From IMG/VR virus record IMGVR_UViG_2617270967_000008: DNA of 23,006 nucleotides. One strand, given 5' to 3'. Positions 9,679-23,006 of this stretch are shown piece by piece. The notes under the pieces are model-generated. The model worked only from the letters and a program-made list of their open reading frames with translations, was not told where the DNA came from and did no database searches. Position 1 is the stretch's first letter. Each line of letters starts with the position of its first letter. The translations under genes were made by a program, and so were the position numbers. The stretch is from a virus (Duplodnaviria; Heunggongvirae; Uroviricota; Caudoviricetes).

Positions 9679-10212
9679 TTATCTGTCAATTCCCCAGCAC
9701 GCCAGCGCACTCTCCTGGTCGCGACGGGATACCTGACCGTAACAGTTGTTTGAGCGAATACGGCAGTCTCTGCCACCGTCCTTAATCCACCAGCGAATCG
9801 CTTCGCATGCTCCCCTGCGATCACCTGCATTAATTCGTCTGTAAAACGTCGACGGGAAACACTTACCGGGACCAATGTTGTACGGACAGAATGACGCGAT
9901 CCCCGCTTTCTGGGGTTCGGTCAGCGGCACTCTGATGTTTTTCTCCACCCACGCCAGCGCTTTATCACGCTCAATGGCGTTAACCTGGTCGCATTTTTCC
10001 TTCGACAACTTCATGCCCGGAACGACAGGTTTGCCATCCACCATGATGGCACCACGGCAGATGGTCCAGATACCCGCACCATCACGGTATGCCGTGGTGT
10101 GGTTGCCTTCTTTTTCATCCAGAAACTGGTCGAGAATTTCAGGCGCAGACGCACCAGCGGCAATCAGCGCCAGAACGGCAGCCGACAGGCCGTATCTGAT
10201 TTTTGCGTTCAT
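9679..10212 (-). CDS. SAR-type endolysin (phage lysozyme with N-terminal signal-arrest-release domain)
   Basis: N-terminal weakly hydrophobic Gly/Ala-rich segment (LSAAVLALIAAGASAPEIL) followed by a lysozyme-like catalytic region (EGNHTTAYRDGAGIWTICRG); resembles phage 21 R / K-12 prophage Rrr-type lysozymes. Confidence 0.85.
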   Translation of the reverse strand: MNAKIRYGLSAAVLALIAAGASAPEILDQFLDEKEGNHTTAYRDGAGIWTICRGAIMVDGKPVVPGMKLSKEKCDQVNAIERDKALAWVEKNIRVPLTEPQKAGIASFCPYNIGPGKCFPSTFYRRINAGDRRGACEAIRWWIKDGGRDCRIRSNNCYGQVSRRDQESALACWGIDR

Positions 10213-10337
10213 GGATATTTATCAGGATTTATCGGTTCCGAATCCCTGGATATGTTAAGTCTTCAGCCCGCCAGTGGTGGGCACTGGCGTAAACTCAACA
10301 ATGCGAGATGGCTGCCTCGCAAAGATAAGGAACAGAT

Positions 10338-10613
10338 ATGAGTGAAGAAAATAGCAAAGAGAATACAGCACTTTTTGACAGAATTTTTACTCTTGAGTTA
10401 CAGGTCGGTTTTCTTCTCCCAAAGATAATCAAAGCAATGGATGCACTAAGTAAAAATAACGCTGTGTCAGATTACCTGATCGCCGAAATGGAACATCTAA
10501 TTAAAGAAATACCAAAGACAGTTGCTCGTGATGATAAAAGATTCCTCAAGGCTGCTGAAGATGCTCTTTCAACAGTGAAGCGCAGCTTAGATGCGCCGCG
10601 CGATCAAGAATAG
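10338..10613 (+). CDS. Hypothetical 91-aa helical protein, AT-rich, convergent with and overlapping the 3' end of the 176-aa gene
   Basis: ATG 10338 with AAGGAA 7 nt upstream; about 38% GC; overlaps 10546-10613 with the minus-strand gene. Confidence 0.5.
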   Translation: MSEENSKENTALFDRIFTLELQVGFLLPKIIKAMDALSKNNAVSDYLIAEMEHLIKEIPKTVARDDKRFLKAAEDALSTVKRSLDAPRDQE

Positions 10614-11076
10614 TTTCTTTCATTTCATCTGCTGCAAGCACCTCATTTTTTGTTGGGGTGCTTTTTTTCAATTCAGCGATATAGCACTCCAGTTTTTCAA
10701 TGCGTGATTCAATATCATCGTTTTCTGACCGCAATGCCGTCGGTGGCGTCTTCAGAGAACCAGTAATTATTCCCGGTAGTTTTCCTCTGTAGGTTATCAA
10801 CACATCCTGCGCCTCTAAAATTATGGGGCGCTTTTCCGGCAACGGACCATCCCCTTCACATAACCCGGCAGCAACATCCATGAAAAACTGCTTCGCCTGC
10901 TTTTTCGCCTCAGCTTCGTAAAACTCCAGCGTGGCATCTTCAGTACGGTCAAGACTAATCGCCACATCTGGCAACAACAGTGACGGATACCCACCAATTT
11001 CCAGTGCCACAGTAACAGTAATCTTATTCGGGTAATTATTTATCCCTTTAACAACCAGTTCGTATTTTTTCTTCAT
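10546..11076 (-). CDS. Hypothetical 176-aa soluble protein inserted between holin and endolysin
   Basis: ATG 11076 lies 4 nt after the holin stop with GGGGAGAG upstream (translational coupling); no TM or signal peptide; predicted coiled-coil C-terminus; no family recognised. Confidence 0.6.
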   Translation of the reverse strand: MKKKYELVVKGINNYPNKITVTVALEIGGYPSLLLPDVAISLDRTEDATLEFYEAEAKKQAKQFFMDVAAGLCEGDGPLPEKRPIILEAQDVLITYRGKLPGIITGSLKTPPTALRSENDDIESRIEKLECYIAELKKSTPTKNEVLAADEMKETILDRAAHLSCASLLKEHLQQP

Positions 11077-11080
11077 CGCT

Positions 11081-11296
11081 TTACTCTCCCCGCGCCGCCT
11101 TACGACGGTCCTCTCTGATTTTGAAATACAGGTTAGTCAGATATGTCAGCAGCCCAAACAGCAGACTTCCCAGTACGCCTATTGCCGCCCACTGAGACGG
11201 GGAAACCCTGTCCAGCAGCTGCAGGAACCAGTAGCCCGTCCCCACCGCTGACGTGGTGTATGACACACCTGTTGTGATTTTTTCCATCTGGTACAT
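11081..11296 (-). CDS. Class II holin/pinholin of the phage 21 S type, with dual-start motif (M1...M4)
   Basis: 71 aa, ...[50 protein letters not shown], resembles S21 pinholin and K-12 EssD-type holins; two TM segments. Confidence 0.85.
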
Positions 11297-11371
11297 ACCC
11301 CGTCTCCCGCAATCCGGAAGCTCACAACAACAAGAGGGGCATCAGCTCACACCGACAGCCCCTGCGCATGG

Positions 11372-11641
11372 TTACATCATCATTTCGCCGTCAGGCTGAG
11401 GCTCACTGCTACCATCAGGCTGAGACCCGACGCCATCTGAAACAGCACTGTCATCCGCAATGCCTTCCGGCTCCGGAACAGTCGGTGCGCCCAGCAGTTC
11501 ATCCAGAATGGCATCCACTTCTGCATCAAGACGCGCCTCAAGGTTCTGCCGAAGTTGCTGTTTCAGTGCGCTTCTGACTTCTTCAGAGCGCAGGACTTCC
11601 TTCACTGCTTCAGCAGTGACCAGCGATTTTATTTCTGACAT
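11372..11641 (-). CDS. Hypothetical acidic 89-aa protein upstream of the holin
   Basis: ORF from ATG 11641 (MSEIKSLV...); helical N-terminus, acidic Pro/Glu/Asp-rich tail; weak RBS. Confidence 0.4.
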   Translation of the reverse strand: MSEIKSLVTAEAVKEVLRSEEVRSALKQQLRQNLEARLDAEVDAILDELLGAPTVPEPEGIADDSAVSDGVGSQPDGSSEPQPDGEMMM

Positions 11642-11678
11642 GGTATTTTCTCGTTGAAAGGTGTTGTTAAGAAAGTTG

Positions 11679-11861
11679 CTACGGAATGAGAGGCTCTTCG
11701 GGTTTTGTTCCGGCTGACTGACTGGCACTGATTTTCTCAGCGGCCCTTTTGTCAATCTGCCTGCGCCAGAAATCTCTCACGACTCTGTACCCACCAGAAA
11801 GAAGATACAGCACACAAACTGCTGTACAGAAATACAACATAATCAGCTGTAAAAATGTCAT
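11679..11861 (-). CDS. Hypothetical 60-aa membrane peptide
   Basis: ORF with hydrophobic N-terminus (LIMLYFCTAVCVLYLLSG); overlaps the next ORF in another frame. Confidence 0.3.
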   Translation of the reverse strand: MTFLQLIMLYFCTAVCVLYLLSGGYRVVRDFWRRQIDKRAAEKISASQSAGTKPEEPLIP

Positions 11862-12009
11862 TATTCATCTCCATTATTGACATGGTCAATGCCTGCCAGT
11901 AAAAAACTCCTGCATTTTTTGCTCAGCATATTTTTGCTAAGGATGTAGCGACTTCTGCCGCCGGTTCTGGCTCCTTGTTTTCCCTGCCACGGCGGTCTTT
12001 TTTTCCTGC

Positions 12010-13953
12010 TTACGGGTTATTCACTTCCACTGTTATACTTTCAATCAGCACCGGGTAAGTCGCATTTTTAGTGATATCGGTCACGCGCAACTTGTCTGCC
12101 GTAAACGTGCCGACCGGAGACTGCGACAGCATGAATGGTGTCCCGTCCTTACCATCAATGACCGGCGTCACCTCAATACTGTTGTTACCGGCAAAACGGA
12201 AGCCCAGCGTATGCCATTCGTTATTAAATGCGCCGAATGACCCCAGCTTCGTGTTCTGCGCCGTGTTTCCTTTGTGATACATCACGTTAAGGTCTGTGGC
12301 ATCGCTCTGTACGTAGAACGATGCCAGCAGGTTATGACCGGCATTACCTTCCAGTGTGACCCCCTGAGGCAGGGAAGAAACCGGCCAGTACAGCGCCAGT
12401 GCGTACTGATTAGCCGTAAGCGCGCCATCGAGTTTAAAACGACAACTGACAAGACCACCTTTACCCAGCAGGTCCGCACCATTACCAGCATCATGCTCAA
12501 GGTACCAGGGGGCTCTTCCTGTTTCCTTGGTCAGTTTCATTGCCTTACCCCCGCTGGCTCCGGCATCATCCACGATTTGAGCCTTGCCACCTCCGGCAGC
12601 CCAACCCTGTGGTGTCAACCGTCCTTCAGACTCAGATGCCCGGTAAGCAAATAGCGTACTCATCGTCGTGGTGTCTGCGGGTGGCGTGGACGGTTTTGAT
12701 GGTGTATCAGGTGACGGCTTCTCATCCGGTGGTGTCACGGTCTGCCCGCGCATCAGTTCAGCCGTGCGCCCTGCATGGAGCATAATAGCTGAGGCCAGAC
12801 GGTCTGAAATGACGCCCCTGCGTGCCCATGAGCTGAAATGGCTGTCACGCTGTGTCGAAACAAAACTGCCCTGGGTTCGGGATGCTGCACCGTAATACCC
12901 GACAGCCACAATATCCGGGTCTTCCGCCGGAGCATTCGTTGGCGTGCTCTGTCCATTCTCATCCGTCAGGAACGGTACAAAGAAAATATTCTGTGCTTCC
13001 CTGCCCTTGTAACCGCCATATACCGCCTCATATTTATCGGCGTTAAGATTCTTCCAGTAATACGTGGTGTCACCACAAATCCACGGCACCGAGCCAGCAC
13101 TTCCGCCAACACACTGTGCAGAATATGCAGCCATATCAGCCCTGAACTGCTGCACCATAGTGGTAAACAGGCCGCTGTGCTGCTGACTGCCGTCCGCAAG
13201 ATCATTTTCCCCCTGCATCCATACCACGGCCAGAAGCCTGTTTTTCGGGTTCTTCGACAGCGCCGCTTTTGTACGGAAGAGAAAATCCTGATACAGCGGT
13301 TTACCCACTCCCCAGCGGGCTGAATTTGCCGATGCGCCAGACGTTTCGCTGAACGTGCCGTCATTACCCACGGTTAAACCAGACCCGCCACGGCAACAGG
13401 GCACCAGAAGAATCCCGGCATTCTGCGGGATATAAGGCAGAAGTTTTTTGGCAATATGCAGCCCCTGACCGACAGTCCCGTACTGGCCCTTACTCAGGTC
13501 TGCATGAGGATGGTTAAGTGCGCTCATGTCCTGAACATCATGCAGACAGTGGTCTGCCGGAATAACGTCATTGTATGCACAGGTATCACCACCCGGCGTC
13601 ACAGTGCTGCGACGGGCCAGCTGCTTAATACGGGAGTCAGGGCGATCATAGGTCTCCGGCAGAGGAAGCCCCTCACCATAGGCCATACCGTTCGACTGCC
13701 CGGCCAGGGGAATAACGTAGTAATACTCCGGTTCAGTGGTAGCCACTCCCGGAGAGCCACCAGCCCCTGTGTCGGGCACAACCACAGGCGTGGTCACATC
13801 ACCCTCTGCGGCAATGGCCTGCATCAGTGTATAAGGCGTGATAGCCACAGGACTGCCAAACGGCTGCCAGCCTTCCTTCAGTTTTTGTGTCAGTCGCTCC
13901 GCAAGGTCTGACGGCGACGCCGCCCTGACCACGTCATAGTGTTTAAATGCCAT
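12010..13953 (-). CDS. nanS: Prophage sialate O-acetylesterase (NanS-p-like; the large ORF that follows stx in Stx phages)
   Basis: N-terminus MAFKHYDVVRAASPSDLAERLTQKLKEGWQPFGSP is the characteristic start of these esterases as I recall; about 647 aa; strong RBS AAGGGGAGGA before ATG 13953. Confidence 0.8.
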   Translation of the reverse strand: MAFKHYDVVRAASPSDLAERLTQKLKEGWQPFGSPVAITPYTLMQAIAAEGDVTTPVVVPDTGAGGSPGVATTEPEYYYVIPLAGQSNGMAYGEGLPLPETYDRPDSRIKQLARRSTVTPGGDTCAYNDVIPADHCLHDVQDMSALNHPHADLSKGQYGTVGQGLHIAKKLLPYIPQNAGILLVPCCRGGSGLTVGNDGTFSETSGASANSARWGVGKPLYQDFLFRTKAALSKNPKNRLLAVVWMQGENDLADGSQQHSGLFTTMVQQFRADMAAYSAQCVGGSAGSVPWICGDTTYYWKNLNADKYEAVYGGYKGREAQNIFFVPFLTDENGQSTPTNAPAEDPDIVAVGYYGAASRTQGSFVSTQRDSHFSSWARRGVISDRLASAIMLHAGRTAELMRGQTVTPPDEKPSPDTPSKPSTPPADTTTMSTLFAYRASESEGRLTPQGWAAGGGKAQIVDDAGASGGKAMKLTKETGRAPWYLEHDAGNGADLLGKGGLVSCRFKLDGALTANQYALALYWPVSSLPQGVTLEGNAGHNLLASFYVQSDATDLNVMYHKGNTAQNTKLGSFGAFNNEWHTLGFRFAGNNSIEVTPVIDGKDGTPFMLSQSPVGTFTADKLRVTDITKNATYPVLIESITVEVNNP

Positions 13954-14040
13954 TATTCCTCCCCTTTCCGGGATTTTCCTCAACAGTTGCGGGCCACGGT
14001 CCGGCTACACGGAGAATCAAAAGAGGAGAACCGCAGCCCG

Positions 14041-14133: not shown

Positions 14134-14165
14134 CCCGCCCGCCACTCACTGCGGGCTTTTTTTTG
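14134..14165 (+). terminator. Plus-strand hairpin followed by T8
   Basis: CCCGC-cactcact-GCGGG then TTTTTTTT on the + strand; the opposite orientation to the surrounding genes. Confidence 0.5.
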
Positions 14166-14171
14166 CCCATA

Positions 14172-14199
14172 GAAAAGCCCCTCCGGAGAGGGGCTTTTT
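14172..14199. terminator. Bidirectional rho-independent terminator
   Basis: AGCCCCTC-cgga-GAGGGGCT flanked by AAAA and TTTT. Confidence 0.65.
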
Positions 14200-14439
14200 A
14201 CAGTGGTAGTGTAGACAATTTTGCATGGTGCCGGGTGCCTCCCGGTGAGTTCAGTATCAGCACCTGAACCCGCACAGAAAGGATAAGGGTCGGTGACAAA
14301 ACACCAGTTGCTGATTGCCCCTCCGCACAGGGGGATTCACCATGCCAGTTTCTTTTAACAAACTCCCCGCAAACCAGACAACAGTCAACCGCCTGAATTG
14401 TGAGGTATTTAAAAATTTCAACGGGTAACTGATACCCTG

Positions 14440-15211: not shown

Positions 15212-15288
15212 TGGCGCGTTGTACTGGATTCGAACCAGTGACCGATTGCTTAGAAGGCAATTGCTCTGTCCGGCTGAGCTAACAACGC
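15212..15288 (-). tRNA. tRNA-Arg (anticodon UCU)
   Basis: Hand-folded cloverleaf: acceptor GCGTTGT/ACAACGC, D-arm GCTC/GAGC, anticodon loop CTTCTAA, T-arm ACTGG-TTCGAAT-CCAGT, discriminator G, encoded CCA. Confidence 0.85.
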
Positions 15289-15304
15289 AGGATACAGATA
15301 ATGA

Positions 15305-15378
15305 ACCGCCTTCGGGGATCCGAACTCCGCGCAACCAGCTTCGAAGGCTGGCGCTCTTTCCTGATGAGCTAATGGCGG
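15305..15378 (-). tRNA. tRNA-Arg-like (anticodon UCG) with non-canonical features; possibly degenerate
   Basis: Hand fold: D-arm GCTC/GAGC, anticodon arm CCAGC-CTTCGAA-GCTGG; T-loop TTCGGAT with one A-C mismatch in the T-stem; acceptor 6/7 paired, starts C1-G72, no encoded CCA. Confidence 0.5.
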
Positions 15379-15385
15379 TATGTGA

Positions 15386-15461
15386 TGGTGGCCCTTGCTG
15401 GATTTGAACCAGCGACCTGGCGATTATGAGTCGCTCGCTCTCACCACTGAGCTAAAGGGCC
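15386..15461 (-). tRNA. tRNA with anticodon CAU, resembling E. coli tRNA-Ile2 (ileX-like) rather than tRNA-Met
   Basis: Hand fold: acceptor GGCCCTT/AAGGGCC, anticodon loop CTCATAA, T-arm GCTGG-TTCAAAT-CCAGC, encoded CCA; overall resemblance to ileX as recalled. Confidence 0.8.
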
Positions 15462-15489: not shown

Positions 15490-16203
15490 TCAATAATCAA
15501 GCCCTTGCCTGGATACATATCTGTCTGGCGGGAAGCCATAATAGCGGTGAAATACAGAAATAAAGTAGGACCTGCTTGAATAACCGCATTTTTCTGCTAT
15601 AGCCTGTCCATATCCATGCCGGGAACATAACATATTTACAGCAACACGCATCCGCTCTTCCAGCAACAAGCGACTGAACATGCCCCCTTCATTTTTCAGT
15701 TTTGTCTTTAACAAACTCTCACTCATATGCAACTGTAGAGCAATCGCACAAAGCGTCCAGCTTGCTGATATATCTGTCTGAATTATCGCCCTGACTTTGG
15801 CACTTATGCTGGATAAACATCCACTTAAAAACAATGACATCCGTTCATCTGTTTCAAACAGAGACAGGCAGGCCATCATAAGAAACATATCCGTGGCCTC
15901 TCCGGAAAATCCCTGGCTGGTAATTAAAGCCGCAGCCAACGCAGGATTGTTGGGTTCCAGCAACAGGTAAAGCGGAATGTCAGTCAGACGAGTCCTCGTC
16001 AGCTTATGCTGACTTTCCAGATATTGACTTACGACGGATTCGCTTATATCGACAATTTTAACTTTGCCATAATGCATAAGGAAAAGCTCCCTGATGCATT
16101 TGGTGGCCAGAACAACTGAGCCTGGCTTAAGTGACAACGTATCCTTTTCAAGAAAAATATTAATTGGGGAGCAAACCATGATAACTGAACAGACAACAGC
16201 CAT
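15490..16203 (-). CDS. AraC/XylS-family transcriptional regulator (AppY/EnvY-like; prophage regulatory cargo)
   Basis: C-terminal double-HTH (...LLKTKLKNEGGMFSRLLLEERMRVAVNMLCS...AEKCGYSSRSYFISVFHRYYGFPP) resembles EnvY/AppY; N-terminus MAVVCSV like AppY MDYVCSV; AT-rich. Confidence 0.85.
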   Translation of the reverse strand: MAVVCSVIMVCSPINIFLEKDTLSLKPGSVVLATKCIRELFLMHYGKVKIVDISESVVSQYLESQHKLTRTRLTDIPLYLLLEPNNPALAAALITSQGFSGEATDMFLMMACLSLFETDERMSLFLSGCLSSISAKVRAIIQTDISASWTLCAIALQLHMSESLLKTKLKNEGGMFSRLLLEERMRVAVNMLCSRHGYGQAIAEKCGYSSRSYFISVFHRYYGFPPDRYVSRQGLDY

Positions 16204-16760: not shown

Positions 16761-17582
16761 CTATCGCGTTACCCTCTTTAACTGCCGCTCCGCCCATGCC
16801 TCTTCAATGTCAAACCGAACCACCAACGTATCGTAAAAGCGTTTCACTGATTTTTTCCACGTATCAAGCGTGATAGCACTCGTCACTTTGCATATGGCAT
16901 TAAATGCCTCCGTTGATGGTAGTCTTTCACAGCCACGACCACCACAACGCTGGCAGTCTCTGATAACAGGCATACCACGTTTTACCGACTCTTCACGATG
17001 AATGGCGACACCACGCCCACGGCAATCCTTACAGGCGGTGGAAACCTCACCCTTTCCGCCACACTCCGGACAGGCAACTTTTACCACCTCCCTGACTTTT
17101 TTCCATTCTTCCCAGTAAGACGGATACACACCTTTCGTACACTTTGCCCATACCGGCGGCTTACCATCCGGATACTGGACCTTGTTTGTAAAAACTACGC
17201 TTTCAATAAATTTTTCCCCATAGCAACAAGGGCACTGCTTTTTACTCGCTGCGCTGCGGGCATAATCCTCAAAAGCGTACGAAGCCATAATGCGCATCAC
17301 TACCGGTTTTATTTCTGCCGGGAGTTTTCTTAACGCCGCCACGCGATCACACCGACTGAGTGCATATTCTGTCAGCAATTCTGTTGCCCGCTCTCTGTCA
17401 TTCATACTAATGCCCATTTTACCAAGGAACGCAGAAAACCCCATCTCAGCCCGATTCTGTGTCATGCCCTGCGCGGCCATCACATCAGTGATACTCAGCG
17501 CATCTTTCGACGTTGAGGCCGATGCATCAGTCAGGCCGGGGGATTTTGGGGAGTAGTATTTCGGTAAATCTTCCAGTTTCAT
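16761..17582 (-). CDS. Q: Late-gene antiterminator Q (lambda Q family)
   Basis: Alignable to lambda Q at the N-terminus (YSPKSPGLTD...DVMAAQGM), zinc-binding cysteines, and C-terminus (TLDTWKKSVKRFYDTLVV...LKRVTR); 273 aa with insertions. Confidence 0.85.
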   Translation of the reverse strand: MKLEDLPKYYSPKSPGLTDASASTSKDALSITDVMAAQGMTQNRAEMGFSAFLGKMGISMNDRERATELLTEYALSRCDRVAALRKLPAEIKPVVMRIMASYAFEDYARSAASKKQCPCCYGEKFIESVVFTNKVQYPDGKPPVWAKCTKGVYPSYWEEWKKVREVVKVACPECGGKGEVSTACKDCRGRGVAIHREESVKRGMPVIRDCQRCGGRGCERLPSTEAFNAICKVTSAITLDTWKKSVKRFYDTLVVRFDIEEAWAERQLKRVTR

Positions 17583-17956
17583 TTTTTGACCTGCCCTTCA
17601 AGCATTATGGGGTAAATCTTCACCCCCAGACGTCCACCAGATACTGGCTGACCACGAACGATATTGATTTCATCAAACTGCTCATCGTCCATTAACACTC
17701 CCGCATGCGTCAGCGCATCCAGCGGTGCTTTCAGGATATTGTCCAGGTCGCGACGACGCTTATCCGGAAGCTCTGCAATCACCTTTATCGCCAGCCTTCC
17801 GGACAGGCTTAATTTCAGCCGCTGCTGGCGAACAATAAGCGCCACAGCCCGGCGATAACGCTTTCCCTCCTCCGAGATAAAATATGTGCTGCCACGGCGT
17901 CGCCAGTAAGTGTTCACCGTCGGCGGGTAAGGTAAAACCAAATCTATGAGCATCAC
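17579..17956 (-). CDS. rusA: Holliday-junction resolvase RusA
   Basis: 125 aa; PDKRRRDLDNILKAPLDALTHAGVLMDDEQ matches the RusA catalytic core; 4-nt overlap with the Q start. Confidence 0.85.
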   Translation of the reverse strand: MMLIDLVLPYPPTVNTYWRRRGSTYFISEEGKRYRRAVALIVRQQRLKLSLSGRLAIKVIAELPDKRRRDLDNILKAPLDALTHAGVLMDDEQFDEINIVRGQPVSGGRLGVKIYPIMLEGQVKK

Positions 17957-17965
17957 TCACCTCTT

Positions 17966-19015
17966 TTACCCAAGCACGCCAGTTGCAAAGGCGTGATCAA
18001 GAAAACGAAAAATTAAATCAACCTGAGAACCATGCTTTTCTTCGAACGCCAGAGGATCCGCATGAAGCTCGTTGTGATGCTCCCGACACAGCGGTAGCGT
18101 GAAAATATCGTGAGATTTTGTCCCCATTCCGCCCTGACCATGACCAATCAGGTGATGGGGATCGTCGGCTGGCTTACCACAACACGCACACGGCTGTGTC
18201 TTCACCCAGCGTGTGTATTTCTCGTTAACCCAGCGGCGACGTTTAGGTCGTTTCATGAAAGATTCCGGAGACTCAGGATCAACGGCAATGCTGACCACCG
18301 TCTTTTCCTGTGGTGGGTTCTGTTGCTGGTGGGCGTGAGGCAGCGGCGCAAGATTTTTTGTGCGCTGTTTCAGTATGCTGGTGGCGGTCTGCTCTCCCGG
18401 TACGATGTCGCTTTCACGGTACATTGAGCGGATTTTTTCCGCACGCAACCCCAGCGAACGACGTAATACCGCTTCCGGTAGCGCGTCCGCCACCTGATTG
18501 CGGACCGCCCACCAGGATAATTCAGCCAGCGATAATTCCCGCTCCTGTGTGCCATTCATTGCGTGACGAATGACGTCAATCATCCATGCTGACAAGTTTT
18601 GGTGAGCAAGTTGCTCAAGTGATTCGGAGGTCTGGTCACGCAACTGGTTGTCGCAGTGCCAGCACAACACCATTGCGCCGGTACCATAACGGTGAATGAC
18701 GGTTTCGCTGTGATGATAATCGCCGTGTGGCCACTGGCAGGATTTAATATGGCGCAACAGCCAGTCAGACAATGCACCAGCACCACCAGCAGCACGAATC
18801 ACCCGTGCGTTACTGAAAAACGGCAGCAATGTTTTGTCTTCCACCAGCGGCTGGCGAACGGCAGGAACGACCCCGGACGGCAGATTACGCATGCTTTTCG
18901 GTTCCGGCTCCACCAGTACCCGGGTATTGTGGAATACCGGCATGGATTCACGGCCCGGCTTAACGATCACCAGCCCGAGTTCCGGTACCAGAACAGGTCG
19001 AAGTAATACTCGCAC
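17966..19015 (-). CDS. DUF968-type protein (YdfU-like) with C-terminal Cys/His-rich HNH-like motif
   Basis: 349 aa, the same length as K-12 Qin YdfU as I recall; C-terminal CACCGKP...HHLIGHGQGGMGTKSHD...CREHHNELH motif. Confidence 0.6.
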   Translation of the reverse strand: MRVLLRPVLVPELGLVIVKPGRESMPVFHNTRVLVEPEPKSMRNLPSGVVPAVRQPLVEDKTLLPFFSNARVIRAAGGAGALSDWLLRHIKSCQWPHGDYHHSETVIHRYGTGAMVLCWHCDNQLRDQTSESLEQLAHQNLSAWMIDVIRHAMNGTQERELSLAELSWWAVRNQVADALPEAVLRRSLGLRAEKIRSMYRESDIVPGEQTATSILKQRTKNLAPLPHAHQQQNPPQEKTVVSIAVDPESPESFMKRPKRRRWVNEKYTRWVKTQPCACCGKPADDPHHLIGHGQGGMGTKSHDIFTLPLCREHHNELHADPLAFEEKHGSQVDLIFRFLDHAFATGVLG

Positions 19016-19016
19016 G

Positions 19017-19295
19017 TTACCTCCAGATGCGTTGCTGGAATGTGCGGGACGGACGCGGTGAGCGTTCGGAGTAAGGAAGCCTGACGGAGATTATCCAGTG
19101 ACGATAATCGAGGCTGAGGGCTTTCTTAATCTCGTATCCGTGTCTGCGGTAGCACTGAATTAGCCACTCGGCCTGTTCTTCAGTGCATGGGGGATGCTGG
19201 AACCAGTCAGATTTGAAAGTGCGGGAACGCCGCCCGTGCCTGCTGGCAAAGACGGCAGAATCATCAGAATTGTGTAATTTGGTATCGTGCGCCAT
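19017..19295 (-). CDS. Hypothetical ~92-aa protein (position equivalent to rem of Qin; identity unverified)
   Basis: ATG 19295 (MAHDTKLH...) downstream of a terminator and a TTGTTT-N18-TACAAT promoter-like sequence; the upstream ORF-track extension contains the terminator. Confidence 0.35.
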   Translation of the reverse strand: MAHDTKLHNSDDSAVFASRHGRRSRTFKSDWFQHPPCTEEQAEWLIQCYRRHGYEIKKALSLDYRHWIISVRLPYSERSPRPSRTFQQRIWR

Positions 19296-19365
19296 CGGTT
19301 GTCTCTGCTGGCGCAGCAGGTGCCAGTTGTTCAGGCTGGCGTGCGAATTGTAAACCAGAATGCCA

Positions 19366-19394
19366 GGAAAAAACAAAACCCGCCGAAGCGGGTT
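19366..19394 (-). terminator. Rho-independent terminator downstream of hok
   Basis: Minus-strand AACCCGC-uucg-GCGGGUU followed by UUGUUUUUU. Confidence 0.65.
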
Positions 19395-19462
19395 ACGTGC
19401 GGGTGCGTTGAGGATGCCTGACACATCAGAGGTGGCGAGGGGTTTCTCCCTCGCCGGGTCTC

Positions 19463-19618
19463 TTACTCCTCAGGTTCGTAAACTGTGAAGACAGCGACCT
19501 CCGTCTGGCCGGTTCGGATTCGTACCTCGCAGAGGTCTTTCCTCGTTACCAGTGCCGTCACTATGACGGTTAAACAGATGACGATCAGGGCGATTAACAT
19601 CGCCTTTTGCTGCTTCAT
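19463..19618 (-). CDS. hokD: Hok/Gef-family type I toxin (HokD-like, 51 aa)
   Basis: MKQQKAMLIALIVICLTVIVTALVTRKDLCEVRIRTGQTEVAVFTVYEPEE is near-identical to HokD as I recall; AAGGAG RBS; an upstream in-frame ATG gives a mok-like extension. Confidence 0.85.
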   Translation of the reverse strand: MKQQKAMLIALIVICLTVIVTALVTRKDLCEVRIRTGQTEVAVFTVYEPEE

Positions 19619-19909
19619 AGCCTGCTTCTCCTTGCCTTTCGGCACGTAAGAGGCTAACCTAGATTTGCCGTTCATAGATTGAGCCTCAGATTAATGTTAA
19701 GCGTCTTGCAGGACGCGTAATGTTAACTGGGGCTTTTCTCTATCTGCCTTTTGGTATTCATGCCTGAGACAGATAGCCTCAAGCACCCGCAGCAATTCTA
19801 CTTAACTATCCTTTCCCCGCAAATCGTTTTTATCCCCAGCGACAAATCGAATACACCACCAGCGCCACCGCCATTGCGATCCCTACCGTTGTGAATGCCT
19901 CAGGCCAGG

Positions 19910-20254
19910 TCATCGTAAAACATCCTCTGCGCTTATCAGTCCGTTTCGCTTCAGGTAGTCCATCGCCTTACCCGGCAATTTACAGTCCGGCTTCGTTTTC
20001 CTCAGTTGCCAGGTTAACTGCTTTACCAGCATGGTTAACTCGTCGACCAGACGCTGATGTCCCACTGGTTTGTATTCATGCAATTTACCGGCTGGCTCTG
20101 CTGCCAGCGATGCCAGTGCGATTTCCAGAACAGCAATATCCATCTTATATGTGCGGATGATGTCATGGTCGATTGTGCCCGGTATGCACAGTCTCTGTGC
20201 TTCAATAGTCTCCTCTGCGTGAGCTATTAACTGCTCTCTGGTAAAAGTGGTCAT
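19910..20254 (-). CDS. Hypothetical 114-aa protein
   Basis: ORF whose start overlaps the stop of the upstream 130-aa gene (ATGA); no recognised motif. Confidence 0.4.
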
Positions 20255-20643
20255 GCCGCGCTTCCTTCTTGCTTATTAACGATTACACCGTCATATATTT
20301 CATTAAGGTGTCCCCTCAACTCCATGCGCCTTAATGCAGACAACATGTAATCGCATTCAACCTGCTTATTTCCAGTAAATGGCTTATCGTCAGGATCACC
20401 CCAACAGCAATTACCCTTGGGCCACCCATGTACTTTCCGTACTCTTCCGTTAACAACGTGAAGTAATCCCCAGCCAGGTGGTAAATCCTCAATTGAAATA
20501 ATTCCCGGCTCACTAATAAAGAATCTCCAGTCGCCCATGCCAAGAGAGGGATTTTTACGGAAACGCTTTTTTCTATCTGCCAACAAGTCAGCACGAGAAC
20601 ACTTCGCCTCTATCAGGCATGATGCTGAATTTCTGAATCCCAT
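20251..20643 (-). CDS. Hypothetical 130-aa protein (Cys/Trp-rich [14 protein letters not shown] segment)
   Basis: ORF coupled to the 114-aa gene; no recognised family. Confidence 0.4.
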
Positions 20644-20669
20644 AGCATCTGGTTGTTCTCCAGTACTGG

Positions 20670-21608
20670 TTACAGCAACAAAGCGGTCATGAAAGCAAAC
20701 CTTGAACCCGTTGCGCTTAAGGAACCTGTAACCAGTTCATCCCATTTTTCGCGAAGCTTTGACGGACTCATGATATTTTTTACCCAGAATGGATCCCGCT
20801 GCGCCCGACCAAACATTTCACAAATTTGTCTGTGAGTTCTGCCATCCAGCATCCGCATTGTGCGCACGTCGTTGGCCCATGCGGTCCAGTTGGGTTCTTT
20901 CGGTCGCGAAATCTCGCCATCATCGCTGGCGGCCTGCTCGTAAAGACTCACGATTCGTCCCCAGATCCACTGCGCACACGCCAAATCTTCCTGGTTGCCC
21001 CACTGGCGTTTTTTTGCACTGAACACAACCGCGTCAGGGTGTCGGGTTAAAAAATCCTGTTCAACCGTCTGCGGGTCCGGTTGCGAAGCTTCCGGACGAG
21101 AAGTGTTTTTATTCTCTGTAGTAATCTCTGTTGTATTCTCTGTAAGATCATCAGGCCATTTTGACCCGATGACATTGAGTCGTTTTGAACCAATGGAACG
21201 TGCCATTTTGGCCCCTTCCATCGTGTCATTCTGACCTGATGGAGCAGCGCATTTTGACCTGATGGATTCGCTCACTTTGCCACCATTTAAAAGCTCGCTC
21301 TCGTAATTAATCGTGTAAAAATTAGTCATATCACGCTTTGATTTATTGAGCTTTTCGCAACGCAAAAGCCCCAGCGTTTTCAGACTTGCAAATGCGCGTT
21401 TTAACGTTGACTCTGACCAGAACGGGAACTGCTCCAGCCATTGTTCTGTTGTGTTATAAATCCAGCGAACACCATCACATTCCATGCCGGAACCGGTATC
21501 TCTCAACCAGTAATGCAACTGCTGCAACACGATGGCTTCGTTCAGACCAATTTTCATCGCCAGCTGCGTGTTTATAACCAGCGGACGTTCAGCAAAAAGG
21601 AGCTTCAT
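20670..21608 (-). CDS. Putative phage replication-initiation / replisome-organizer protein
   Basis: N-terminal HTH-like region (LNEAIVLQQLHYWLRD...STLKRAFASLKTLGLL) and position upstream of the nin-like genes; start at ATG 21608 directly after a G9 tract. Family assignment is tentative. Confidence 0.5.
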   Translation of the reverse strand: MKLLFAERPLVINTQLAMKIGLNEAIVLQQLHYWLRDTGSGMECDGVRWIYNTTEQWLEQFPFWSESTLKRAFASLKTLGLLRCEKLNKSKRDMTNFYTINYESELLNGGKVSESIRSKCAAPSGQNDTMEGAKMARSIGSKRLNVIGSKWPDDLTENTTEITTENKNTSRPEASQPDPQTVEQDFLTRHPDAVVFSAKKRQWGNQEDLACAQWIWGRIVSLYEQAASDDGEISRPKEPNWTAWANDVRTMRMLDGRTHRQICEMFGRAQRDPFWVKNIMSPSKLREKWDELVTGSLSATGSRFAFMTALLL

Positions 21609-21617
21609 CCCCCCCCC
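21609..21617. repeat. Homopolymeric C9 (G9 on coding strand) tract abutting the replication-gene start codon
   Basis: Direct reading: nine consecutive C at 21609-21617; ATG at 21608..21606. Confidence 0.9.
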
Positions 21618-21628
21618 AGAACACGTTA

Positions 21629-21888
21629 TCAATGCGCCACCACGGCATTTCCCGCCGGACCACCACGATTCATCTGATCGAACAACACGATCGCTGCCGC
21701 AACAAACTCATCGATATCTTTCACCAGGCGCTCCCGTCGCTCGACAAGCTCCCGGTGATATTCCGAACTGTGGCTGCGCATTCGGGCCACCAGTGGAGGC
21801 GGCATTGCTTTTTCGATCGCCGGTAACAACGCCTGAATTTTTTTAACCGCATCAGGGGTGTCTTTTTCTACCCAGCGGAAAATTTTCG
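21629..21888 (-). pseudogene. 5'-truncated prophage gene (C-terminal ~66-86 codons) interrupted by the IS66-family insertion
   Basis: Open frame continues upstream of the track start with no stop until it enters the IS end near 21889; the stop overlaps the replication-gene region. Confidence 0.4.
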
Positions 21889-21972
21889 TAAGCGTAAAGC
21901 CAATGCCGTCTGTAACACCTGCTCCTTGCAGACTAAATTAGAGCTCCTTCTAAATTAGACGGAGTTCTATTG

Positions 21973-22407
21973 ATGGATAAACCTACAGACTGGCGCTCCG
22001 GAACCCGCCGGATATTTTCTAATGAATTTAAACTTCATATGGTTGAACTGGCTTCGAAACCAAATGCCAATGTTGCACAACTGGCCCGGGAACATGGCGT
22101 TGATAACAACCTGATTTTTAAATGGCTACGCCTCTGGCAAAGAGAAGGACGTATTTCTCGTAGAATGCCTCCAACTATTGTAGGCCCTACAGTATCACAA
22201 TCTTTTCCGGCCTCTCCGACTCTGGTTCCAGTGGAACTTATCGACACCCCGCGCTGTGCTACAGATGCTCCTGCTCCGGGGGCATTATCAGTTGCTTGTG
22301 CAGCTTCCTGCCATGTGGAATTCCATTACGGTAAAATGATGCTGGAAAATCCTTCACCAGAGCTGCTCACGGTGTTGATCCGTGAGCTGACCGGGAGGGG
22401 ACGATGA
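21973..22407 (+). CDS. tnpA: IS66-family accessory protein TnpA
   Basis: N-terminal ...RRIFSNEFKLHMVELASKPNANVAQLAREHGVDNNLIFKWLRLWQ HTH typical of IS66 orfA; ATG 21973 with GGAG upstream. Confidence 0.85.
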   Translation: MDKPTDWRSGTRRIFSNEFKLHMVELASKPNANVAQLAREHGVDNNLIFKWLRLWQREGRISRRMPPTIVGPTVSQSFPASPTLVPVELIDTPRCATDAPAPGALSVACAASCHVEFHYGKMMLENPSPELLTVLIRELTGRGR

Positions 22408-22754
22408 TTTCACTCCCATCAGGTACCCGTATCTGGCTCGTTGCCGGCGTTACTGATATGCGTAAATCCTTCAACGGTCTGGGGGAGCAGATACAGCATG
22501 TGCTGGATGATAACCCCTTCTCCGGTCACCTGTTTATCTTCCGTGGCCGACGGGGAGACACGATTAAAATCCTGTGGGCTGATGCTGATGGTCTGTGCCT
22601 GTTCACCAAACGCCTTGAGGAAGGTCAGTTTATCTGGCCTGCGGTGCGTGACGGTAAGATATCCATTACCCGCTCGCAACTGGCAATGCTCCTCGATAAG
22701 CTGGACTGGCGTCAGCCAAAAACATCCCGCCTTAACGCACTGACAATGTTGTAA
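22404..22754 (+). CDS. tnpB: IS66-family TnpB
   Basis: 116 aa, MISLPSGTRIWLVAGVTDMRKSFNGL...LFIFRGRRGDTIKILWADADGLCLFTKRLEEGQFIWP, characteristic IS66 orfB; overlaps the tnpA stop. Confidence 0.9.
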   Translation: MISLPSGTRIWLVAGVTDMRKSFNGLGEQIQHVLDDNPFSGHLFIFRGRRGDTIKILWADADGLCLFTKRLEEGQFIWPAVRDGKISITRSQLAMLLDKLDWRQPKTSRLNALTML

Positions 22755-22784
22755 AAAACGCCGGGCCGGATTATAAAAACGGCC

Positions 22785-23006
22785 ATGAGTCAGAAATACC
22801 TCATTCGCATCGCTGAGCTGGAAAGGCTGCTCTCTGAGCAGGCTGAAGCCCTCCGTCAGAAAGACCAGCAACTGAGTCTGGTTGAAGAGACGGAGGCCTT
22901 CCTGCGCTCTGCACTGGCACGTGCCGAAGAAAAGATCGAAGAAGATGAGCGAGAAATAGAGCATCTGCGGGCTCAGATAGAAAAACTGCGCCGGATGCTG
23001 TTCGGA
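22785..23006 (+). CDS. tnpC: IS66-family transposase TnpC, N-terminal 74 codons (3' end beyond window)
   Basis: Own translation MSQKYLIRIAELERLLSEQAEALRQKDQQLSLVEETEAFLRSALARAEEKIEEDEREIEHLRAQIEKLRRMLFG: the coiled-coil N-terminus typical of IS66 transposases. Confidence 0.8.
   Translation, partial: MSQKYLIRIAELERLLSEQAEALRQKDQQLSLVEETEAFLRSALARAEEKIEEDEREIEHLRAQIEKLRRMLFG

Follow-up and report, generated by a model that had tools for sequence, protein, structure and literature searches.

Two minus-strand ORFs of 130 and 114 amino acids, sharing an ATGA stop/start overlap, are present in the window (the whole 23,006-nt stretch of viral DNA analyzed here), and the ORF list places both exactly where the original prediction had them (table 1). 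Their upstream neighbor is a 320-aa ORF belonging to PHROG 391 ("replication initiation O-like"), the stop codon of which (20670) lies 27 nt before the ATG of the 130-aa ORF. Downstream, outside the pair, are a hok/mok ORF (PF01848) and a sok antisense region (RF01794), beyond which domain annotation of the window identified a DUF968/HNH protein, RusA and antiterminator Q. The location between a replication gene and hok was therefore described in the correct order, but the adjacency to the replication gene proved to be the product of a deletion (see below).

No significant family was found in Pfam, NCBIfam or PADLOC for the 130-aa ORF, its intact 171-aa counterpart or the 114-aa ORF, which agrees with the earlier remark that neither ORF matches a recognized family. 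A scan of 19400–21000 for promoters and terminators revealed no promoter-like site and a single terminator-like match, at chance level.

Several other features were observed in the same part of the prophage. A 135-aa ORF near hok is only 92 aa long in related genomes, and its last 66 residues alone match PHROG 1212; the longer form is probably an extension made by the ORF finder. The late-regulatory region contains a gene for a 237-aa AraC-family regulator (HTH_AraC/HTH_18) just upstream of three tRNA genes, and a full-length match to the STnc100 sRNA (RF02076, 145.6 bits) is located upstream of a SASA/DUF1737 esterase gene.

Table 1. Positions of the features discussed (window numbering unless a locus, L001 or L004, is named)
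Feature	Position	Strand	Remark
Portal/attachment fusion ORF, 340 aa	3460-4482	minus	Phage_portal_2 and Phage_attach
SASA/DUF1737 esterase gene	12010-13983		
STnc100 sRNA	14165-14374	minus	RF02076
Three tRNA genes	15215-15461		
AraC-family regulator	15490-16203	minus	
RusA	17579-17956		domain match
135-aa ORF	19017-19424	minus	
hok/mok and sok together	19463-19788	minus	
hok/mok ORF	19463-19675	minus	PF01848
sok antisense region	19613-19788		RF01794 match
114-aa ORF	19910-20254	minus	ORF list
130-aa ORF	20251-20643	minus	ORF list
ATGA overlap of the two ORFs	20251-20254	minus	
K55 codon, retained	20602-20604	minus	residue 14 of 130-aa ORF
E53 codon, retained	20608-20610	minus	residue 12 of 130-aa ORF
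Leftover codons 13-41 of the 171-aa gene, in frame	20644-20730	minus	YRFLKRNGFKVCFHDRFVAVTSTGEQPDA, translation upstream of ATG
D40 codon	20647-20649	minus	upstream of surviving start codon
E37 codon	20656-20658	minus	in leftover codons 13-41
O-like replication ORF, 320 aa	20670-21632	minus	PHROG 391
Foreign tail of O-like ORF, ~20 codons	20670-20728	minus	TGSLSATGSRFAFMTALLL, nuclease-gene DNA read out of frame
Deletion junction	20729/20730		2-nt TA microhomology; comparison with SHP24-like and NMBU-W12E19-like prophages
Native body of O-like ORF	20729-21632	minus	
In-frame TGA before leftover codons	20737-20739	minus	
IS66-family ORFs	~21888-23006	plus	
HTH_Tnp_1 ORF	21970-22407	plus	IS66 family
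TnpB-like ORF	22404-22754	plus	IS66 family
"Frameshifted" pseudogene call, NMBU-W12E19	L001 12739-12917		NZ_CP042892.1
"Frameshifted" pseudogene call, second genome	L004 2176-2354		NZ_CP104788.1

Truncation of a 171-aa gene left the 130-aa ORF

Comparative analysis showed that the 130-aa ORF consists of codons 42–171 of a 171-aa gene, the true family of which comprises PHROG 631/9263, gp08 of phage TL-2011c and Upf89.0 of P7. In a megablast search of phage records, positions 20233–20700 of the window shared ~96% identity with a gene present in Stx-converting phages, TL-2011c and P7; in the latter two (gp08, YP_007001431, and Upf89.0, YP_009914570) it is 516 bp long and encodes 171 aa. The profiles of the family were hit with very high significance (E 9e-96 for PHROG 9263 and 3e-67 for PHROG 631) but only in part, over positions 101–230 of 230 and 62–201 of 260, respectively, indicating that the ORF is a fragment of a member of this family.

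Alignment with the intact genes of TL-2011c, P7 and Escherichia coli NMBU-W12E19 was gap-free at the DNA level from the stop codon to codon 13; beyond position 20730 of the window it failed, and homology switched to the O gene. Codons 13–41 are still present in frame upstream of the ATG. This leftover contains no ATG, GTG or TTG and is preceded by an in-frame TGA, so the translated ORF cannot extend into it. What was taken for the start of a gene is the first internal methionine, M42, of a beheaded gene, and residues 1–41 are missing from the translated window copy, codons 1–12 and the ribosome-binding site being absent as DNA as well. An AAGGAG motif lies 7 nt ahead of the native start, whereas the internal ATG is served by no more than a GGAG at a distance of 14 nt. 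All of the best 80 IMG/VR loci carry the intact form spanning residues 1–171. The exact 130-aa product was found elsewhere only in a 100%-identical contig, or where a scaffold gap or contig end removes the 5' end. The upstream ORF cannot be upheld as a gene: it is a 5'-truncated remnant lacking its native start, its ribosome-binding site and the putative catalytic Asp discussed below.

The cause of the truncation became apparent from comparison with SHP24-like and NMBU-W12E19-like prophages, relative to which 3,682 bp are missing at the junction. Positions 17626–20730 of the window align to 9776–12881 of locus L001, the prophage of E. coli NMBU-W12E19 (NZ_CP042892.1), and the alignment resumes from window position 20729 onward at L001 position 16564 onward, within the replication gene there; over 20729–21887, the window and the "phage replication protein O" region of strain SHP24 are 100% identical. 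The parental sequences have only the dinucleotide TA in common at the junction, a signature of illegitimate recombination. Lost from the 171-aa gene are its ribosome-binding site, its start and codons 1–12, and O is missing its last ~28 codons. The deleted stretch also contained a DnaC/IstB-like helicase loader, DUF1627, DUF977 and DUF4406 genes, an Ead/Ea22-like gene and two hypothetical genes. As the deletion fused O to the nuclease-like gene, the O-like ORF is itself chimeric and ends in a foreign tail of about 20 codons. With a chimeric O and the helicase loader and six other genes gone, replication of this prophage should be disabled.

No match across the junction exists in the 5,426 complete E. 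coli genomes searched. A draft contig deposited independently at NCBI (JMGU01000148.1, GCA_000687025.1) matches window positions 17303–22146 with 100% identity, and this identical 4.8-kb arrangement rules out an assembly chimera as the source of the junction, which is therefore real and lineage-specific.

Fold and conservation of the 171-aa family

The 171-aa family is common in prophages of Enterobacterales and has members in Stx-converting phages and P7. Its members are typically 160–176 aa long and are always named "hypothetical". A profile search detected 3,255 representatives of 50%-identity clusters at E <= 0.001, and part of the region examined here was matched at the DNA level in 1,556 of the 5,426 complete E. 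coli genomes. In two genomes (table 1), the intact gene is annotated in RefSeq (PGAP) as a 179-bp "frameshifted" pseudogene, the rest being left unannotated. The ORF is uninterrupted in both copies and collinear with TL-2011c gp08, and the pseudogene call is probably an annotation artefact. A literature search on MmcB, DUF1052, 3dnx and Upf89.0 returned only a 2012 census of the PD-(D/E)XK superfamily and incidental mentions, with no work on this phage family among them.

Multiple alignment of 29 family sequences revealed that E53 and K55 (IE-x-K motif) are invariant and that E37 and D40 (GE-x-PD) are nearly so. Further conserved blocks are SR-x-DF-x-AD-x-KK, GMGDWRF, GWGLL, KPF-x-x-NKQ-x-EC and ALRR. 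Based on this conservation, E37/D40/E53/K55 may constitute the active site of the parent family.

Structure prediction had been proposed as a check on the pair, and it was informative for the parent. The AlphaFold2 model of the 171-aa protein, built on the family alignment (pLDDT 86.5, pTM 0.80), contains a helix (5–18), three strands (23–26, 41–45 and 48–54), a second helix (58–65) and a further strand (80–85), that is, the alpha-beta-beta-beta-alpha-beta core of the PD-(D/E)XK superfamily. D40 opens strand 2, and strand 3 carries E53-x-K55. The model resembles 3dnx, the solved representative (SPO1766) of the MmcB-like/DUF1052 family, which is also the DUF1052/PF06319 structure in the 2012 census (PMC3424549). 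Foldseek matches among viral models (BFVD) included, at E 7e-8 to 5e-4, phage proteins under the name "MmcB family DNA repair protein". Sequence searches of the PDB with the single sequence or the family profile gave nothing significant, the best hit again being 3dnx (E 0.23), for which the part aligned by the HMM coincides exactly with the motif region.

The 171-aa family and the MmcB-like family (PF06319, presently named "MmcB-like DNA repair protein" in Pfam) are in the same size class, single-domain proteins of about 150–170 aa, and share the motif ..D..G(F/L)....(I/V)IE(A/C)K.SRADF.AD.K. However, distant representatives of the phage family score only 12.4–18.4 bits against the MmcB-like profile, below the Pfam gathering cut-off of 22, and neither the window ORF nor the intact 171-aa protein matches it. 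In addition, the 171-aa family is carried by phages and prophages of Enterobacterales, whereas PF06319 has been described as a mostly chromosomal family of alpha-proteobacteria (PMC3424549); the window copy also differs in being truncated. The model allows us to place the parent with confidence in the PD-(D/E)XK fold, closest to MmcB-like/DUF1052, and we conclude that it represents a distinct, unnamed sister family of MmcB-like within this superfamily.

Holliday-junction resolvases provide a second point of comparison. Archaeal Hjc (PF01870) and AHJR-like nucleases have the same PD-(D/E)XK core, and the spacing of D40/E53/K55 resembles that of the corresponding Hjc residues. Hjc was weakly matched by 12 of the 29 family members (best E 0.016), all below threshold. 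In contrast to Hjc, the 171-aa family has an additional C-terminal beta-hairpin and helix (residues 95–150), and the fold match to Hjc is far weaker than that to 3dnx. Nothing in the family points to junction resolution, and the prophage already has RusA. Caulobacter MmcB is an SOS-induced endonuclease conferring mitomycin-C resistance. The parent of the 130-aa ORF is probably a small DNA endonuclease that depends on Mg2+ and would function in the repair or recombination of phage DNA. The original guess of a recombination or anti-defense function is thus reasonable for the parent as regards recombination and repair, its fold being near MmcB-like/DUF1052, but does not extend to a dedicated pair, as described in the next section.

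The fold also bears on what the truncation would mean for the protein. Helix 1, strand 1 and D40 are all encoded upstream of the surviving ATG; hence the single-domain core could not form as modeled and the predicted metal site would be incomplete. Of the motif D...(D/E)-x-K on strands beta2/beta3, only E-x-K is left in the window ORF. The remnant is very probably inactive, judging from the model, and the ORF is most likely, we infer, an untranslated or non-functional pseudogene fragment. An alternative is that it serves as a functional short form, re-initiated at M42 after the O-like ORF, with a non-catalytic role such as DNA binding or dominant-negative action. The reading frame is indeed open and, over its 130 codons, does not differ from the parent; E53 and K55 survive along with the entire conserved C-terminal half; and ribosomes terminating at the nearby stop of the upstream ORF could re-initiate and so make some 130-aa product. 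However, the Shine-Dalgarno sequence is weak, the arrangement is known from one lineage only, other 130-aa calls are assembly artefacts, and the identity to the parent reflects recent origin rather than selection. Since such a product would also lack three elements of a compact single-domain fold, we consider a functional short form quite improbable.

The 114-aa gene and its variable neighbors

Unlike the beheaded gene upstream, the 114-aa gene is complete, with a Shine-Dalgarno sequence of its own (AAGGAAG, 8 nt upstream), and its protein is called in many E. coli genomes. The protein is composed of two shuffled modules. The N-terminal helical-hairpin module (residues 1 to ~55, MTTFTREQL...) is common to DUF551 proteins and P7 Upf89.5; the C-terminal module (the last ~45 residues, ELTMLVKQL...) recurs at the C-terminus of proteins of 101–198 aa. 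The AlphaFold2 model (pTM 0.42) shows a confidently predicted helical hairpin at residues 6–51 (pLDDT about 90), after which come a disordered linker and more helices. It has no significant fold match, a Foldseek search against the PDB yielding only generic helical hairpins (E > 0.5). The sole domain match of the ORF, AphA_like (E 0.027), was dismissed as noise.

The closest counterparts of the 114-aa protein are the DUF551-type ea/nin proteins of lambdoid phages, together with PHROG 660 and PHROG 60; shared features are the module M(T/I)T(F/I)T(K/R)E..L...IALASLEAEP and an ATGA junction with the gene ahead. Over its C-terminal ~48 residues, the protein matches the end of PHROG 660. Unlike the DUF551-type proteins, it has a different helical cassette of ~45 aa as its C-terminal module, and no match to DUF551 itself (PF04448) was detected. 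TL-2011c gp09, which shares the N-terminal module, contains DUF551 (E 1e-21). We infer that the 114-aa protein is a small helical binding or regulatory protein rather than an enzyme, and the gene is one of many interchangeable ea/nin-type accessory genes.

We then analyzed the gene following the nuclease gene in the best 80 IMG/VR loci with a full-length nuclease gene (L010–L089). The ATGA overlap, originally interpreted as translational coupling, is real and conserved in all 80 loci, but it is not special to this pair, as the downstream gene ranges from 34 to 468 aa. These downstream genes begin with M(I/T)T(I/F/L)T... and have the same N-terminal helical module, ending in IALASLEAEP, followed by unrelated C-terminal parts. 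Many of them end in a DUF551-type WMPLPEPPQE tail and a few in a tail like that of P7 Upf89.5. The co-occurrence check suggested with the original prediction therefore supports a constant junction and not a constant partner, the 114-aa form being present in only 7 of the 80 loci. The N-terminal module adjoins the nuclease gene in 60 of its 71 occurrences, heads other nearby genes in the remaining 11 and is sometimes repeated on neighboring genes.

These observations bear directly on the proposal that the two ORFs form a dedicated coupled system, such as a nuclease with its regulator or inhibitor, a toxin-antitoxin pair or an anti-defense pair. Besides the invariant overlap and the frequent association of the module with the nuclease gene, such a system would be favored by the occurrence of the 171+114 pair in 49 complete E. 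coli genomes. It is contradicted by the range of partners and their unrelated C-terminal parts, by the rarity of the 114-aa form beside the nuclease gene and by the presence of the module on genes that do not follow that gene. Moreover, no known defense or toxin-antitoxin model in PADLOC matched either protein or their intact relatives, and the nuclease partner is truncated in this window. A dedicated pair is very improbable on this evidence. A related possibility is a modular system, in which an MmcB-like nuclease would be retargeted or regulated by an ATGA-joined gene whose constant hairpin docks on it and whose variable "cargo" (34–468 aa) differs between phages. If so, the cargo might be directed, for example, against different host defense or repair factors, and the 171+114 combination would be one variant, disabled here by the deletion; we regard this too as very unlikely. 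We read the ATGA junction as a probable site of accessory-gene shuffling in lambdoid phages; it does not speak for a fixed two-component system.

The Cys/Trp-rich segment and decay of the prophage

The 130-aa ORF does contain a Cys/Trp-rich segment, which had been thought to be a metal-binding or catalytic site. The segment is modeled confidently (pLDDT about 86–90), but in the 29-sequence alignment only G114, P116, N119, W122 and K128-P129-F130 are conserved within it. C120, C121 and D124–D127 are kept in the nearest relatives only; most other members have A/T/S/V, Y/L/E or similar residues in their place, or a deletion (e.g., GWP-GNAVW-- and GWP-PNTYW--). Conservation of acidic and basic residues is instead found elsewhere in the sequence, at the canonical PD-(D/E)XK positions (E37/D40/E53/K55). 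This pattern speaks against a Cys/Asp metal-binding site, and a metal-binding or catalytic role of these residues is extremely unlikely.

The prophage is degraded elsewhere too: the helicase loader is lost, and there are IS66-family ORFs and a fusion ORF in the morphogenesis region. Homology to intact prophages stops at position 21887, and the IS66-family ORFs begin about 80 nt past this point, so that the immunity and early-left region is cut off. In the 340-aa fusion ORF, positions 2–172 of 354 of Phage_portal_2 are joined to positions 16–96 of 99 of Phage_attach, which looks like a second internal deletion.

Taken together, the locus very likely represents a decaying lambdoid E. coli prophage with a deletion-beheaded nuclease-like gene and an intact accessory 114-aa gene. 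An illegitimate 3,682-bp deletion joined the O-like replication-initiator gene to codon 13 of the 171-aa accessory gene; the 130-aa ORF is what the ORF finder recovered from M42 of the beheaded gene; and the 114-aa gene survives intact behind the remnant, still joined to it by ATGA. This is ordinary prophage decay and not a new two-gene system.

The locus illustrates how deletions can create plausible-looking "novel small gene pairs", and the 130-aa gene should be neither annotated nor cloned as such. The conserved ATGA junction and N-terminal cassette probably mark a site at which lambdoid phages shuffle accessory genes. Little else is gained from this locus, with one modest exception, the fold assignment for a widespread, unannotated phage family, which together with the candidate catalytic residues E37, D40, E53 and K55 makes the predicted function of this family testable.
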